34,060 bases of DNA from a virus (taxonomy: Duplodnaviria; Caudoviricetes): positions 1 to 34,060 of IMG/VR virus record IMGVR_UViG_3300032274_000030. One strand, written 5' to 3'. The position numbers and the translations under genes are program-made. Under the pieces are notes generated by a model. The model searched no databases. It was not told the DNA's origin and worked only from the letters and a program-made list of their open reading frames with translations. Position 1 is the stretch's first letter, and each line of letters starts with the position of its first letter. This document shows, piece by piece, positions 12,834-18,653 of the stretch.

Positions 12834-14568
12834 CAATTTAGAAAAAGACTTCCTCAAAGAAATCGCCGAGCTAGCTCAAGGGTTGCGTGCGGAAATCGAG
12901 GCCAAACAGGTTGGGCTTGATCCGTCGCCTGCAGCGCGACTGGCGCGGCGTAAGCGCGTGCTGTTGGATGGTGACTTTGAGTTCTTTTGCTACACCTATA
13001 TGTCGCACCACATCCGCCCGCCTGCGTCACAGTTTCACGAGCACTTTTTTAAACGCTTCCCGATGCTGCTGGATAAGCCAACGGGCGCTAAAGAATGGTG
13101 GGTTGCGCCGCGTGGCGAGGCCAAGTCATCGCTGGCGACCAAGGTCGGCCCTGTCTGGTGTGCGGTGCGCGCTTTGCTGCAACGGCCTGCTATTCGTGCA
13201 GAGATTGGCTGGGAGGGAGAAGCGCCGTATTACATCGACTACATCACACTGCTCGGGGCAGAAACTAAGCTGCCGACCAAACTGCTTGAGGTCGTTAAAG
13301 TTGAGCTGACGGTTAACGCCGCGCTGGCGCTTGATTTTCCTGAAGCATGCGGCACTACTAAAAACTGGAAGATTGGTGAATTCACCACGAAAAGCGGGGT
13401 CAAGATCGAGAGCTTCGGCGCTGAGCAAGCGATTCGCGGCACGTTCCACGGTTCATCACGCCCTAAGCTGTTACTCGGCGATGACCTCATTACCGATAAA
13501 GAAGCCAAAAGCCCCACCGAGTGCAATAACCGCTGGGACTGGTTGGAAAAGGCCGTGGACTTCCTCGGCCCACCTGACGGCACCGTTAAATTTGTAGGTG
13601 TCGGTACGGTACTTAACAAAAATGACCCGATCAGCCGCGCCAAGGCTGCGATAGGTCACTTGGTGCATCACTTCCGTGCATTGATTGAGCTGCCGTCGCG
13701 CATGGATATGTGGGAAGAATGCCAAGCGCTGATGCTTAACCAGGACAAACCCGCAGAGGAAGCCGCTAATGAACGCGGCGAAGTACTCGAAGAAAACCAA
13801 TTGCCCTCTTTCTTGTTTTATCAGACACACCAAGATGAGATGGAAGCAGGCGCGGAAATATCGTGGCCCGGTGTGAGGTCGCTGTTTTGGCTGATGCGCC
13901 AGCGTGCTAAGAACGCACGGGCGTTTGCTACGGAAATGCAGGGCGACCCGCGTAGTGATGAAGATAAGGTGTTTACACCTGTGCGGTTTTTTATATCTCG
14001 TTCGAATAGCTGGATCATGTTTGGCGCTTGCGATCCGTCTATGGGCAAAGGCGAGAAATCTGACCCATCGGCATTGATTGCAGGTGGATGGGATCGAGAC
14101 AGGAAGAAATTACACGTAATTGAAGCTTCGATTAAACGCCGAGTACCAAGCAAGCTGGAGGCCGATTTGATCGACTTTCAGCGCGAATACAAATGCAGGG
14201 CTATTGGCTTTGAGAATAACAATGCCTATGAACATATGCGCCAGACGTTCATTAGCGCTGGGCTGGCCAAAAGTGTGCCGCTGCCTTTGGTTGCGGTGAC
14301 GGCCACGGTGGATATGGAAGTGCGCATCGAGTCGCTGGAGCCATACATTACCGATGCATTTGATCCGCGCATTTTATTTAGCCCTGTCTTGACCTTGCTG
14401 CTGGCTGAGCTAGATAGCTGGCCAGAGAAACAATCTAGCCACCACTACGACGGCCTAAGTGCGCTACACATTTTATGGATGATGGCGACAACACGCAGCG
14501 GAAAAATTGAATATCAGCGCGCGCCAAGCGGGCGCGATGCAAGCGATACGGGGAGAAAAGGATGGTAG
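12826..14568 (+). CDS. Terminase large subunit (Mu gp28-like)
   Basis: APRGEAKS Walker A, RPKLLLGDD Walker B, VGT, GACDPS nuclease motif and HYDG. Confidence 0.93.
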   Translation: MASNLEKDFLKEIAELAQGLRAEIEAKQVGLDPSPAARLARRKRVLLDGDFEFFCYTYMSHHIRPPASQFHEHFFKRFPMLLDKPTGAKEWWVAPRGEAKSSLATKVGPVWCAVRALLQRPAIRAEIGWEGEAPYYIDYITLLGAETKLPTKLLEVVKVELTVNAALALDFPEACGTTKNWKIGEFTTKSGVKIESFGAEQAIRGTFHGSSRPKLLLGDDLITDKEAKSPTECNNRWDWLEKAVDFLGPPDGTVKFVGVGTVLNKNDPISRAKAAIGHLVHHFRALIELPSRMDMWEECQALMLNQDKPAEEAANERGEVLEENQLPSFLFYQTHQDEMEAGAEISWPGVRSLFWLMRQRAKNARAFATEMQGDPRSDEDKVFTPVRFFISRSNSWIMFGACDPSMGKGEKSDPSALIAGGWDRDRKKLHVIEASIKRRVPSKLEADLIDFQREYKCRAIGFENNNAYEHMRQTFISAGLAKSVPLPLVAVTATVDMEVRIESLEPYITDAFDPRILFSPVLTLLLAELDSWPEKQSSHHYDGLSALHILWMMATTRSGKIEYQRAPSGRDASDTGRKGW

Positions 14569-16136
14569 ACATAGTTGATGTGAACGGAAAACCAATCAAA
14601 AGCGAAGCGCTTAAAACGCAGCAGACCTCTAGGCTTGCGCAATTGCACCGTGAATTTGCGACACACCCCAGCCGTGGCTTAACCCCATCTCGACTGGCAA
14701 ATATTTTGCAACAGGCCGAGATGGGTAACATTGCCGAGCAGCACAATCTATTTGAGGACATGGAAGAAAAGGATGCGCATATTCACGCCGAGATGAGTAA
14801 GCGTAAGCGTGCGTTGCTGACAGAGAAGTGGGATATCGTACCGCCGCGCAATGCCAGTGCTGCCGAGCGGAAGTCGGCTGCATATATCAAAGAGGCCATT
14901 GAAGACATTCCCAATTTTGAAGATGTGATTTTGGATGCGCTAGACGGCATCGGCCACGGCTTTTCATGCCAAGAAATCGAGTGGGAATTGTACGGCAAGG
15001 AATGGGTACCCAAACAGTTTAACCATCGGCCGCAGAGCTGGTTTCAAACTGATGTCGCTACGCGTACCGAGATACGCTTGCGGGACATGTCTCAAGACGG
15101 GCAAGCATTGCAGCCGTTTGGCTGGCTCACACATGTGCATAAGGCAAAGAGCGGATACCTTTCACGCGCGGGCCTGTTTCGCGTGCTGGTATGGCCATAC
15201 TTGTTTAAAAATTACTCAGTGGGCGATTTGGCTGAATTTCTAGAAATATATGGTCTACCGCTACGCCTCGGCAAATATACCATCAACGCTGACGACGAAG
15301 AGAAGGCAACATTAATGCGCGCCGTGATGAGCATTGGGCACAATGCTGCGGGCATTATCCCGGAAGGTATGGCTATCGAGTTTATCGAGGCCGCGAAAGG
15401 TTCGCCCGACCCGTTTATGGCGATGATTGATTGGTGTGAAAAGAGTGCAAGCAAGGCGATATTGGGCGGCACGCTGACCAGTCAAGCGGATGGCAAAACC
15501 AGCACCAATGCGCTGGGGAACGTGCACAACGAGGTGCGCCACGATTTGATGGTGTCAGATGCGCGACAGTTGGGCGGCACGTTTACGCGTGACCTGGTAT
15601 TCCCTTTGCTCTACCTGAACAAGGGCGGCGTGCAGGATCGCCGCCGCTTGCCAAAGTTTAAGTTTATTTTTGACGACACCGAAGACTTAACTGTTTTGGC
15701 TGAGGCGCTTCCTAAGCTGGTTGGGTCTGGCATGCGGATTACACGTAAGTGGGCGCATGAACGCGCCGGGATACCTGAGCCGGAAGATAGTGATGAGCTG
15801 CTGACTGTGGCGGCACCCGCTCCGCCGTCTGCTTCATCAACTTCAGCGGCTGCCGCGACATCAACGGCGGCGCTCTCGGCAGTTGTAGATGCGCCTAGTG
15901 GCAATCCGACTGCTGCTGAAGAGGATGCGCTGGCCGCTGCGACGGCTGCGCATTGGGACGTGGTGATCGGTAGCGTTAAAAATATAGTGGATAGCGCTAC
16001 GAGTATGGCAGCGTTGGAGCAGCAGTTAACTGAGGCTTACGGCTCACTGGAAACTGATGAGCTGACGCGCATCATGGCGGCGGGCTTTGCGTTGGCTGCG
16101 CTGCGGGGCATTGCGGATGTGAGTGATGGCAGATAA
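14562..16136 (+). CDS. Portal protein (Mu gp29, DUF935)
   Basis: LFEDMEEKDAHI..EM.KRK.A, FLEIYGLP.R.GKY, SKAILGGTLTS and LGNVHNEVR motifs. Confidence 0.93.
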   Translation: MVDIVDVNGKPIKSEALKTQQTSRLAQLHREFATHPSRGLTPSRLANILQQAEMGNIAEQHNLFEDMEEKDAHIHAEMSKRKRALLTEKWDIVPPRNASAAERKSAAYIKEAIEDIPNFEDVILDALDGIGHGFSCQEIEWELYGKEWVPKQFNHRPQSWFQTDVATRTEIRLRDMSQDGQALQPFGWLTHVHKAKSGYLSRAGLFRVLVWPYLFKNYSVGDLAEFLEIYGLPLRLGKYTINADDEEKATLMRAVMSIGHNAAGIIPEGMAIEFIEAAKGSPDPFMAMIDWCEKSASKAILGGTLTSQADGKTSTNALGNVHNEVRHDLMVSDARQLGGTFTRDLVFPLLYLNKGGVQDRRRLPKFKFIFDDTEDLTVLAEALPKLVGSGMRITRKWAHERAGIPEPEDSDELLTVAAPAPPSASSTSAAAATSTAALSAVVDAPSGNPTAAEEDALAAATAAHWDVVIGSVKNIVDSATSMAALEQQLTEAYGSLETDELTRIMAAGFALAALRGIADVSDGR

Positions 16137-17334
16137 GCAGGGCGCGGCGTTTGGGTTTGGCACGCCCTTTGAAGAGCAACTGGCATTTTTCCTGAAGAAG
16201 CTGAATCTACCCACTGAGCGCTGGGATGACATTATGCGCTCGGCGCATGATCGCGCCTTTATGGTGGCTGGTGCAGCTAAGGCGGATCTGCTCAACGATC
16301 TGCGCGGTGCGGTGCAAAAGCGCATGGCAGACGGCAAAGGGCTGCAAGCTTTTCGCAAAGAGTTTAAGGATATTGTGCTCAAGCACGGCTGGTCGGGTTG
16401 GACGGGGGAAGGTAGCAAGGCGGGCTGGGCATGGCGCACGCGCATTATTTACTCGACCAATATGGCGACTAGTTACGCGGCTGGGCGTTGGAAGCAACTT
16501 ACTCACCCTGACTTGCTCAAGTTGCGGCCGTTCTGGCAGTACAAGCATGCGGATGGTGTGGCGCACCCTCGACCGATGCATGTGCTGTGGGACGGCATCA
16601 CCCTGCCCTACGATCATGTGTTTTGGCTGACGCACTTTGCCCCTAACGGCTGGCTGTGTCATTGCTACATTATTGCGGTAGACGCTAAAGCGTATGCGGC
16701 AGCGTTGCTGGCGGGTAAAGGTGTGCCGCCTGCGGGCTGGGAGCTGCTCGACCCTAAAACGGGCGCACCCGCCGGGATCGATAAGGGTTTTGATTATGCG
16801 CCAGGGGCGAATGCCGATACTTCGTTGCGTCAGATGGTGCAGGACAAGCTAATTATCTACCCGCCTGCGATCAGCAAGGCGCTATCGAGAGATGTTAACC
16901 GATACGTTAATGCTGATCAGAGCGCCGCTGCGTTTGCGCGTGATGTGTTGGCGGATACGCAGCGTACCGATCCTTTGTGGCTTGGTTTTGTTGAGAACGT
17001 TGAAGAAGTTAATGCGGCGCTGGCTGTTAACAAAATTGATACTCGGGGCTATATGGTTATGTTGCCAGCCGATGCACCACGTCATATACAACGGCATCAT
17101 CAATACGATGGCGCGGGGCAGCGATTGCCAGTTGACGGCGATTATGAACTGATGCTGTCCGCGATCAACGCGCCGGATCTGATACAGGAAGGCATCGTAG
17201 TAGGCGGACACCAGCGCTTGGTGATCGTTAAAAAGATCGGTGCGGAAGTGTATAGATGGATTTTTGAGTTAAGACAGGGAAAGCACAATCGCAGTCTTGC
17301 TTTAGTTACGTTGGCAATTAAAACGGCCAAGTAG
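16126..17334 (+). CDS. MuF (gp30) minor head protein fused to a C-terminal PBECR-like nuclease domain
   Basis: HDRAF.VAGA, RP.H..WDG, PNGW.C.C and GID.GF.YAPG MuF motifs. Extra ~140-aa C-terminus with D..RHI..HH...GQ.....D......I..PD...FE.R.GK..L.L.T pattern. Confidence 0.85.
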   Translation: MADKQGAAFGFGTPFEEQLAFFLKKLNLPTERWDDIMRSAHDRAFMVAGAAKADLLNDLRGAVQKRMADGKGLQAFRKEFKDIVLKHGWSGWTGEGSKAGWAWRTRIIYSTNMATSYAAGRWKQLTHPDLLKLRPFWQYKHADGVAHPRPMHVLWDGITLPYDHVFWLTHFAPNGWLCHCYIIAVDAKAYAAALLAGKGVPPAGWELLDPKTGAPAGIDKGFDYAPGANADTSLRQMVQDKLIIYPPAISKALSRDVNRYVNADQSAAAFARDVLADTQRTDPLWLGFVENVEEVNAALAVNKIDTRGYMVMLPADAPRHIQRHHQYDGAGQRLPVDGDYELMLSAINAPDLIQEGIVVGGHQRLVIVKKIGAEVYRWIFELRQGKHNRSLALVTLAIKTAK

Positions 17335-17337
17335 AGG

Positions 17338-17409
17338 AACTGGGAGCCGATGCAGTGCTTTCACACCCCCCGACCTATACGTCTATCGAATCGATAACGA
17401 ACCAGTTAT
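17338..17409 (-). ncRNA. Candidate ~72-nt structured RNA convergent with the MuF-nuclease gene
   Basis: Three-way-junction fold with a GAAA tetraloop and G-U pairs on the minus strand. Minus-strand TATAAT at 17421-17416. Confidence 0.55.
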
Positions 17410-17415
17410 GTATCC

Positions 17416-17445
17416 ATTATAGGGTAAAGCTATGCATTTTGTCAT
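17416..17445 (-). promoter_or_regulatory. Minus-strand sigma70 promoter for the candidate RNA
   Basis: ATGACA (17445-17440), 18-bp spacer, perfect TATAAT (17421-17416). Confidence 0.55.
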
Positions 17446-17971
17446 TGAGGTTAAAGATACAGGGGGGCAGGCGGTGTTTAACCGCATGATCCAGATGGGG
17501 CAAGATACGGGGCCGATACTGCGCGTGCTGGGCGAACATGAGACTGCGCGCATTAAGCAGCGCTTTCAGACGATGACCGCACCGGATGGCACGCGTTGGC
17601 AGGCGAATGCGCAAAGCACCATCGAGCGTTACATCTACGGCAAAGGCGGGTTCAGTAAAAAGACAGGCAAGATTACCTCACGCGGTAAAGCCACCGCGAT
17701 GGGTAAGCGCCCATTGCAGGGTGAATCTGGCGACCTTGCGCGGCAGATTGATTACAGCGTAAACGGCGATAGCGTAACGATCGGTAGCAATCAGATTCAG
17801 GCCGCGATGCAAAACTTTGGCGGTGCTAAAGCGGAGTTTCCTAATTTGTGGGGTGATATACCTGGGCGGCCGTTTATGCCTGTGATGGCAAATGGCATGC
17901 TTTACGCGGATGAAGAGCGGGATATTGTCGAGGTAATTAACGGTGAGCTGCTTAAGGGCTTGGAAGGGTGA
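17432..17971 (+). CDS. Virion morphogenesis protein (Mu gpG-like)
   Basis: RF....APDG..W, L..SG.L...I, V.IGSN...AA.Q.FGG and IPGRPFMP motifs. Confidence 0.88.
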   Translation: MHFVIEVKDTGGQAVFNRMIQMGQDTGPILRVLGEHETARIKQRFQTMTAPDGTRWQANAQSTIERYIYGKGGFSKKTGKITSRGKATAMGKRPLQGESGDLARQIDYSVNGDSVTIGSNQIQAAMQNFGGAKAEFPNLWGDIPGRPFMPVMANGMLYADEERDIVEVINGELLKGLEG

Positions 17972-18142
17972 AAGTGAGAGCGGCCAATAAGCACCGCTGT
18001 GCCGTTTTGGTGTGCAAGTTGGTTGCCTGTGTAGCCAAAAGCAATGCGGCGCGTTTTTAACGGGGGTCTAACGGGGTTGGTGGGGGTTGTGTTGGGGTGT
18101 TTCGGATTTGGGTATTGTTTAGGTGCAAGATTGGAGGTGAAA

Positions 18143-18373
18143 ATGGTAATGCATTCGCAAGAAATCGAAGAGCGTAAAAAAACTGAACATGAAAATTTAA
18201 TATGGTGGGAGCTGGATAAGATTGCAATTGTGTGTTCCAACCAAGCGCCTGAGTCAACAAGGGAAGAAAGGATGCTTAAAGCTAAAGCGGCCACCAATAT
18301 GATGAGTTTCTTGCGGAAGCCGACGGCGGAATGGGCGAGAGAAAAATACAGGCAAGAAGTTCGTGGTTATTGA
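18143..18373 (+). CDS. Hypothetical moron protein
   Basis: Strong GGAGGT RBS, AT-rich, at the G-I accessory site. Confidence 0.6.
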   Translation: MVMHSQEIEERKKTEHENLIWWELDKIAIVCSNQAPESTREERMLKAKAATNMMSFLRKPTAEWAREKYRQEVRGY

Positions 18374-18461
18374 CAACTGATTTATCTTATTTGTATCGGG
18401 GAACTACATGAGCAATCCGACAGAGCCAACCACGCCATTGGCTGAGCGCTCGAATGCTGGT

Positions 18462-18653
18462 TTAGAGGTTGGTGTGCAGCGCAGCCAACTCATTGGTGAG
18501 AATGTTGAGGTTTTGCAAAACGGTGGCCTGAGTTTTTGGCCGGCGCTTAGTGCAACACTTAAAGTGTATGACCTCTAACATTTGATCTAACTGCCGGCAC
18601 TTTTTTGAAATCGCATTGATTGTTGGGTTAGACTCTATGTAATACGTGGTCAT
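18462..18653 (-). CDS. Possible small antisense-oriented hypothetical protein
   Basis: 63-aa ORF from ATG 18653 with a GGGGA RBS. A competing plus-strand 56-aa ORF (18408-18578) also exists. Confidence 0.3.
   Translation of the reverse strand: MTTYYIESNPTINAISKKCRQLDQMLEVIHFKCCTKRRPKTQATVLQNLNILTNELAALHTNL

Follow-up and report, generated by a model that had tools for sequence, protein, structure and literature searches.

What keeps a predicted nuclease in check when it is fused to a virion protein and no immunity gene follows it? The question is raised by a Mu-like virus record (Caudoviricetes; IMG/VR IMGVR_UViG_3300032274_000030), whose positions 1 to 34,060, some 34 kb, form the stretch analysed here and called the window. 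Its portal, MuF and gpG genes stand in the order of a Mu-like late operon. A preliminary description, made from the letters alone, had noted an extra C-terminal domain on MuF containing the motif RHIQRHH, with gpG as the next gene after a gap of 97 bp and no immunity ORF in between; inspection of the ORFs gives the same picture. The protein-coding features are as follows.

14562-16136, portal gene, directly 5' of MuF
16123-17334, plus strand, MuF ORF, 403 aa
16123..16830, plus strand, N-terminal domain of the MuF (gpF) minor head protein (Pfam Phage_Mu_F, E 4.9e-9)
16900..17334, plus strand, C-terminal PBECR3-type predicted RNase domain, the last 144 residues of MuF
17080-17100, plus strand, RHIQRHH motif in the MuF tail
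17083-17085 and 17098-17100, plus strand, His codons of the PBECR3-type tail
17308-17310, plus strand, Thr codon of the PBECR3-type tail
17432-17971, plus strand, gpG, virion morphogenesis gene (Pfam Phage_tail_S, E 1.2e-13; TIGR01635, E 1e-4)

The window tail matches Pfam PBECR3 (PF18812) at E 0.004 and 17.6 bits, below the Pfam cut-off of 30; PF18812 is carried by 14 of 56 close homologs, and one relative, locus L210, reaches 38.6 bits. MuF and PBECR3 are the only Pfam domains found in the window MuF protein, which contains no ToxN or HEPN toxin match. The top fold matches of an AlphaFold model of the tail (pLDDT 90.9) are 7vd7, BrnT (3u97), CdiA-CT (6cp9 and 5i4q) and RelE, all of them BECR RNases, at middling Z-scores (4.9–5.9, with rmsd 3.0–4.3 over 76–87 aligned residues); as expected of that fold, a helix precedes a sheet of 4–5 strands. 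Predicted active-site residues in P0001 are His62, His67 and Thr137; the first His is kept in 64/64 relatives and the second in 63/64. On sequence and modelled structure the tail appears to be a PBECR3-type BECR-fold domain with its predicted catalytic residues intact and a predicted RNase, in agreement with the earlier assignment. It shares with the PBECR domains described in passages of Iyer et al. (2017; PMC5512222) its likely family, the active-site residues given there (His in the region of the N-terminal helix and Ser/Thr near the C-terminus), and fusion to MuF, portal or polyvalent proteins. The PBECR section of that paper names no inhibitor or RNA partner, and it suggests mRNA or CRISPR RNA targets, not tRNA. 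Single-protein scanning of viral contigs with P0001 gave 14 pattern hits, none confirmed; tblastn found no match to P0001 in 50,697 phage records and none to the L060 domain in plasmids.

The locus also resembles the MuF polymorphic toxins, as portrayed in parts of Jamet et al. (2017; PMC5576092), in combining a MuF N-terminus with exchangeable C-terminal tails. In the same parts of that paper a small ORF follows 89.4% of MuF toxins, whereas the window lacks such an ORF, and the toxin status of many unassigned proteobacterial MuF tails is left open. Three small ORFs near the window locus have no tblastn match in 295 loci reaching ~0.6–2.5 kb past the match. Elsewhere in the window, two small ORFs between gpG and a protease gene (18044-18373 and 18408-18578) match no family and gave no tblastn hit in the collected loci, and a 269-aa transposase-like ORF (1179-1988), short for a Mu transposase, matches only Mu-transpos_C.

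The 97-bp gap holds, on the minus strand, a predicted promoter and a predicted structured RNA convergent with the nuclease gene.

17338..17409, minus strand, predicted three-way-junction RNA, 72 nt
17407-17402/17343-17338, minus strand, RNA helix P1
17399-17396/17383-17380, minus strand, base of RNA helix P2
17375-17370/17350-17345, minus strand, RNA helix P3, with G.A 17369/17351 and G-C 17368/17352
17366-17363/17358-17355, minus strand, distal stem of P3
17416..17421, minus strand, -10 hexamer TATAAT of the predicted promoter, start near 17409
17440..17445, minus strand, -35 hexamer ATGACA, within the first gpG codons

The reverse promoter reported earlier (ATGACA-18-TATAAT, 17445-17416) is indeed there, matching at 11 of 12 positions and ranking top of three sites in 1.5 kb; shuffled 1.5-kb sequences contain 1.4 ± 1.2 promoter-like sites. 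The 72-nt minus-strand segment folds at -23.1 kcal/mol (z -2.11; 3 of 200 shuffles equally good), against -14.1 (z -1.31) for the plus strand of the same segment, and with flanks (81 nt) its z falls to only -1.23. At such values the window fold alone is weak evidence, and we judge the RNA real because of its conservation and covariation in relatives. The fold agrees with the earlier drawing, apart from a few details. Only the 4-bp base of P2 (CGUU/GACG) is conserved, its AUCG/CGAU extension being an insert specific to the window, and P3 is longer than GGUCG/CGGCU, continuing through a conserved stack of G-U, G.A and G-C. The fold, once placed 4 nt from the nuclease stop codon, ends 3 nt after it. 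No terminator-like site was found in window positions 16500-18000, and the window RNA has no U-rich 3' flank.

A scan with the domain alignment yielded 40 viral loci, and 33 of them were put to two covariance models after removal of six near-duplicates and one locus without downstream DNA. Each model had its own seed subset of 10 sequences, MAFFT alone having misaligned the junctions; together they match 32/33 loci at E<1e-3, including 16/17 among non-seed loci. A genome scan added 37 loci, mostly from Betaproteobacteria and at least four of them repeats of earlier sequences. Of these, 32 match at E<1e-3, four have the core by eye, and one (L213) is without the RNA. Distant members (L081-L096 and others) are missed by the models and were read by eye or with a descriptor, which misparsed L026, L060, L066, L083, L085, L096 and L129 and was used alone for no count.

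The family comes in two circular permutations, one open at P1, as in the window, and one open at the far end of P3, where P1 is closed by a loop. Among 31 P1-open sequences, 16 of 20 pairs vary on both sides and 99.2% of cells pair; among 43 P3-open sequences the values are 9 of 15 and 98.4%. These alignments are model-fitted and the relatives non-independent; 0 of 500 shuffles match the level of covariation, and slid controls pair at 21–58%. P2 shows little covariation because it is nearly invariant at its two base pairs. The preliminary description had argued for the minus strand from its G-U pairs and GNRA loop: the first half of the argument holds (G-U 182 times versus A-C 9 times on the minus strand) and the second does not, the loop being variable among relatives and missing from the permuted form. 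A -10-like hexamer precedes 68/74 family members, compared with 532/14,800 random positions (3.6%), and in 64 of those 68 it sits 4–10 nt upstream of the RNA; the -35 is weakly conserved, mostly at 3–4 of 6 positions. Both the covarying minus-strand structure and the conserved reverse promoter that had been proposed as checks are therefore present among homologues. A U-rich stretch flanks the 3' end of 33/43 P3-open and 11/31 P1-open copies. Two further ideas were dropped. Repeated switching between permutations appears as seven changes on a quick tree, of which well-supported branches force one (10 of 74 rows excluded), and an anticodon in the P2 loop (UUUCGGA) is contradicted by variation in that loop's length and sequence.

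For the window, Rfam 15 yielded no match at E<=10 except a chance snoRNA fragment, with no tRNA match, and nothing reached the gathering score at 19 loci. No published description of the RNA turned up in the openly accessible texts searched; BECR, MuF and antitoxin are all absent from the main text of a 2026 non-coding survey. The element matches no known Rfam family, and those texts contain no account of it that we found.

Circular permutation is typical of small ribozymes, and the two permutations would suit a mere passenger of the nuclease gene, be it a small catalytic RNA, self-cleaving or of another kind, or an element acting at the DNA level. We think this very improbable: invariant unpaired bases are few, even P2 varies (in L121), Rfam offers no match, the G-U bias speaks against a DNA palindrome, and the joint loss of element and active site described below would be unexplained. 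A guide RNA steering the nuclease to its targets by base pairing, a variant in the preliminary description, would have a precedent in the HEPN-RNase RNA antitoxins that gave rise to Cas13 guides, as stated in part of PMC13064643. We do not favour it and give it next to no credence, as no single-stranded stretch is kept in both permutations and the window holds no complement to its RNA of >=12 nt, only one of 11 nt.

The orientation of the RNA brings in another explanation. Convergent type I antitoxins lower toxin synthesis by antisense pairing, and here too a convergent RNA with its own promoter is fully complementary to the late mRNA where the nuclease gene has its 3' end, and it frequently overlaps the ORF. 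Pairing, however, needs neither a conserved three-way junction nor the invariant P2 base and G.A stack; the RNA is nearly fully paired with itself and covers neither start codon, and cleavage of a polycistronic message for head proteins would cost the phage essential functions as well. Control of nuclease synthesis by antisense pairing therefore seems quite unlikely. Regulation of gpG translation was also considered and rejected, since 58 other MuF-gpG junctions are without the RNA, whose first nucleotide lies 23 nt ahead of the gpG start.

Does the RNA, then, belong to the gene junction or to the nuclease? Among the 80 closest relatives of the MuF N-terminus, the RNA models match 22/22 PBECR3 tails and 0/58 others. 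Searching with an RNA-only pattern returned 37 loci, 26 with PBECR3, comprising 15 MuF fusions, 11 giant polyvalent proteins (nine of them near-copies of one), 2 doubtful cases and 9 unrelated ones. A second RNA-only pattern returned 33 loci (22 distinct), and a profile built for this analysis found the PBECR3 domain in 32 of the 33; the two stem positions left free in this pattern pair in 33/33, in seven combinations. In the polyvalent proteins the PBECR3 domain ends just ahead of the RNA, which lies with its promoter antisense within the ORF; this arrangement is seen inside polyvalent or portal ORFs at L051, L060, L052, L084, L089, L217, L219, L220 and L248. An RNA antisense inside an open frame should leave a peptide imprint. 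Such an imprint of the RNA core, sought in any of three frames, lies <=45 aa past 65 of 115 internal PBECR3 domains from an independent profile search, versus 96 of 4,187 control windows; its frame differs (TSET, YVRN and RPKR types), and 50 of the 115 domains are without one. In a Pfam-only sample of 401 proteobacterial genomes there are 12 places: seven of eight His-type domains have the core, most with a -10, three "IKQ"-type domains have a different element, and one place is cut off. At the eighth His-type place (L257), as at L080, no recognisable core was found beside an intact-looking PBECR3, which may use another RNA, or none. By eye the RNA is visible, unannotated, in the cultured phages RS1 and phiE131 (portal fusion). 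On this sequence evidence it is the nuclease domain, and not the MuF-gpG junction, with which the RNA belongs.

Several neighbouring observations are worth recording. At L066:1154-1234 the RNA and a strong promoter lie in a long ORF in which only the last PBECR3-like residues are recognisable. At L080:1845-1900, and in P0098, P0108, P0125, P0142, P0188 and P0208, an internal PBECR3 is followed by a recurring peptide, LTDANR...PISDLS, which may be an imprint left by another antisense RNA. In L044:1157-1240, L063 and L069, at a prophage end, an element with the P2 motif converges on the gene for a D12-class adenine methylase, and no nuclease is seen beside it. In L256 a repeat-like sequence ~170–190 nt past the domain, which we take to resemble a type I-E CRISPR repeat, breaks the start of a gpG-like gene.

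The same 80 MuF relatives fall into five tail clusters and tail-less forms, and the tail types other than PBECR3 (MuF_C-like GxKxxRH, RDxELxHA and IKQ) each have their own conserved convergent element, often with a reverse -10. Elements of GxKxxRH tails lie just past the MuF stop (L101:3035-3135, L105, L113, L120, L125, L137, L139, L154, L168), and five that were scanned gave no Rfam match. RDxELxHA elements show a T-loop on the minus strand (L114:3043-3120, L119, L126, L127, L131, L132, L153, L155, L159:2032-2111, L160, L165, L169, L170, L172, L174). Longer convergent elements accompany IKQ tails (L141, L144, L150:3030-3140, L166, L173, L252, L254, L259), those of L252 and L254 having T-loop-like ends. 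Rfam returned only weak tRNA-Sec matches (E 0.02–0.3) for sister-family elements at 16 and 20 loci, and ARAGORN called one such element a tRNA of unknown type; the T-loop of tRNA-Sec-like cloverleaves (RF01852) is a feature of these sister-family elements.

Element and active-site motif tend to disappear together. Where GxKxxRH tails are intact the MuF-gpG gap is >=72 nt in 13/13 measured; in 10/10 MuF_C-like tails that have lost the motif it is -26 to +10 nt, and the convergent element with its reverse -10 is gone. A loose regular expression produced two false calls, L111 and L158 (gaps of 4 and 16 nt), and L136 keeps the element with a partly changed tail. L213 combines a deletion in the PBECR3 His region with loss of the RNA and an overlapping gpG. 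In phage Mu, whose PBECR domain is called inactive in the part of Iyer et al. 2017 (PMC5512222) that deals with it, F and G overlap by 4 nt, leaving neither gap nor RNA. Of five tail-less MuFs measured, three have a gap of <=16 nt, and the other two have 78 and 201 nt without a recognised element. Two Nitrosomonas loci, L205 and L207, retain the RNA beside a frameshifted nuclease gene with a His-to-Arg change and may be recently decayed prophages. Co-loss is compatible with any dependence between RNA and nuclease, not inhibition alone.

One branch of the P3-open form suggests what the RNA imitates. Its P1 is a 5-bp stem with the loop YUCAUAC (including CUCAUAC), and this arm matches, at most positions, the anticodon arm of initiator tRNA in the same genomes: ARAGORN-confirmed initiator tRNA-Met genes of three genomes (G001, G108, G330) read G-UYGGG-CUCAUAA-CCCRA-AG, and G26, the outer stem pairs, G31-C39, loop positions 32-37 and A44 agree, whereas the middle stem pairs vary and position 38 is C. 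The PBECR3 RNA is nevertheless not a tRNA, having no acceptor end or T-arm, and ARAGORN found no tRNA in L001, L002, L003, L081, L082, L051 or L060. The window shares the junction core of the anticodon-arm branch (L081 being the link), to which relatives of Rhodovulum phage RS1 also belong, and the window RNA would start and end where the anticodon-arm loop would be, like a cut product. As the window RNA has neither anticodon loop nor T-loop, and the loop of P1 varies among the P3-open forms closest to it, the decoy step is evident only in another branch. The tRNA-decoy variant of the preliminary description is supported by one subfamily directly and also by the sister families. A separate observation comes from a Helicobacter cetorum prophage (L218:1040-1130), in which a hairpin like an anticodon arm (CUUAUAA) lies behind PBECR3 and P2 is apparently missing.

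At three loci (L294:701-915, L161:3051-3260, L170:3030-3210) the cognate element stands in tandem with a second, foreign one. At L294, the thirty-third locus of the second RNA-only pattern, a new tail with its own T-loop element is followed by ~28 codons of an old PBECR3 end and then the old RNA. Orphan immunity genes occur at polymorphic toxin loci, and the tandem RNAs mirror that arrangement. The likeness to MuF polymorphic toxins, as given in parts of PMC5576092, thus extends to a cognate partner right behind the tail and to orphan partners behind displaced tails.

The strict co-occurrence and co-loss would fit equally well if the RNA were an effector or cofactor, that is, if the PBECR domain matured, carried or were activated by it and the pair countered defences of the host, for instance as a bait occupying those of its anticodon nucleases whose substrate is initiator tRNA. 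Look-alikes of anticodon and T-arms are what a bait would show, and 20/31 P1-open copies, the window included, are without a U-rich 3' flank, so that some enzyme may have to make their 3' end. Even so, a protein that has predicted RNase residues but is not accompanied by an immunity ORF would still require a guard, every type of nuclease comes with a separate type of RNA, as in toxin-antidote pairs, and a cofactor role does not explain why orphan RNAs outlast their nuclease. We regard an effector role as unlikely.

Our preferred reading is that the RNA is probably a type III-like RNA antitoxin, the immunity determinant of a virion-borne polymorphic RNase. In this model the small RNA would bind and inhibit the PBECR3-type nuclease, taking the place of a protein immunity gene. 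Transcribed from its own host-type (predicted sigma-70) promoter in the lysogen and during late growth, it would keep free MuF-nuclease quiet by mimicking a tRNA arm, either as substrate or as product; recognition by shape is inferred because circular permutation leaves the junction intact. The MuF N-terminal domain is predicted to bring the tail into the virion. The nuclease would then enter a new cell with the DNA and cut host RNA, tRNA being the likeliest target, until the incoming genome transcribes the RNA and switches it off. Needing no translation, an RNA antidote could lift a block on translation from inside the blocked cell. A lysogen that makes the RNA would be resistant to nucleases from related phages, and this would account for the orphan copies. 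A wider proposal, somewhat less likely than not, is that the whole PBECR/MuF_C group has RNA immunity genes, each type mimicking a part of tRNA, lying antisense behind or inside the toxin gene, swapped whenever the toxin tip is swapped and accumulated as orphans; once injected, the nuclease would cut tRNA (initiator tRNA for PBECR3) and stall host translation in the first minutes, timed out by an antidote requiring transcription only.

Like the type III systems ToxIN/AbiQ, CptIN, TenpIN, AbiF, AbiV and AvcID (PMC10511110), in which, as far as the relevant passages describe them, the toxin is a protein, usually an RNase, and its partner a structured RNA, the locus combines a predicted RNase with a non-coding RNA as its predicted direct inhibitor; a structured non-coding RNA gene appears here to adjoin the predicted toxin, as in that class. 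ToxIN/AbiQ, CptIN and TenpIN have tandem repeats and a terminator upstream of the toxin on the same strand (passages of PMC12283969), and AbiF and AbiV are HEPN toxins with RNA antitoxins (passages of PMC13064643). The predicted toxin here has a BECR fold, by contrast, not ToxN or HEPN, and is a domain of a virion protein, encoded in a phage structural module rather than a host defence locus. Unlike ToxIN, CptIN and TenpIN, it has a single-copy, convergent RNA, downstream of or inside the ORF and with its own promoter, without an upstream repeat array and terminator and without a pseudoknot in our models.

Up to 26% of polyvalent proteins contain a PBECR domain, according to a passage of PMC5512222, and a profile for just this one family retrieves 3,555 clusters at the 50% identity level. 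The RNA gene and its promoter are hidden antisense in long coding sequences, where intergenic screens cannot see them. The element would serve as a marker separating active from dead tails, in a system of ~0.6 kb. An RNA partner, if true, would account for the missing immunity ORFs and would bring both the BECR fold and toxins delivered by virions within the range of RNA antitoxins, with the initiator tRNA as a testable target in one branch.
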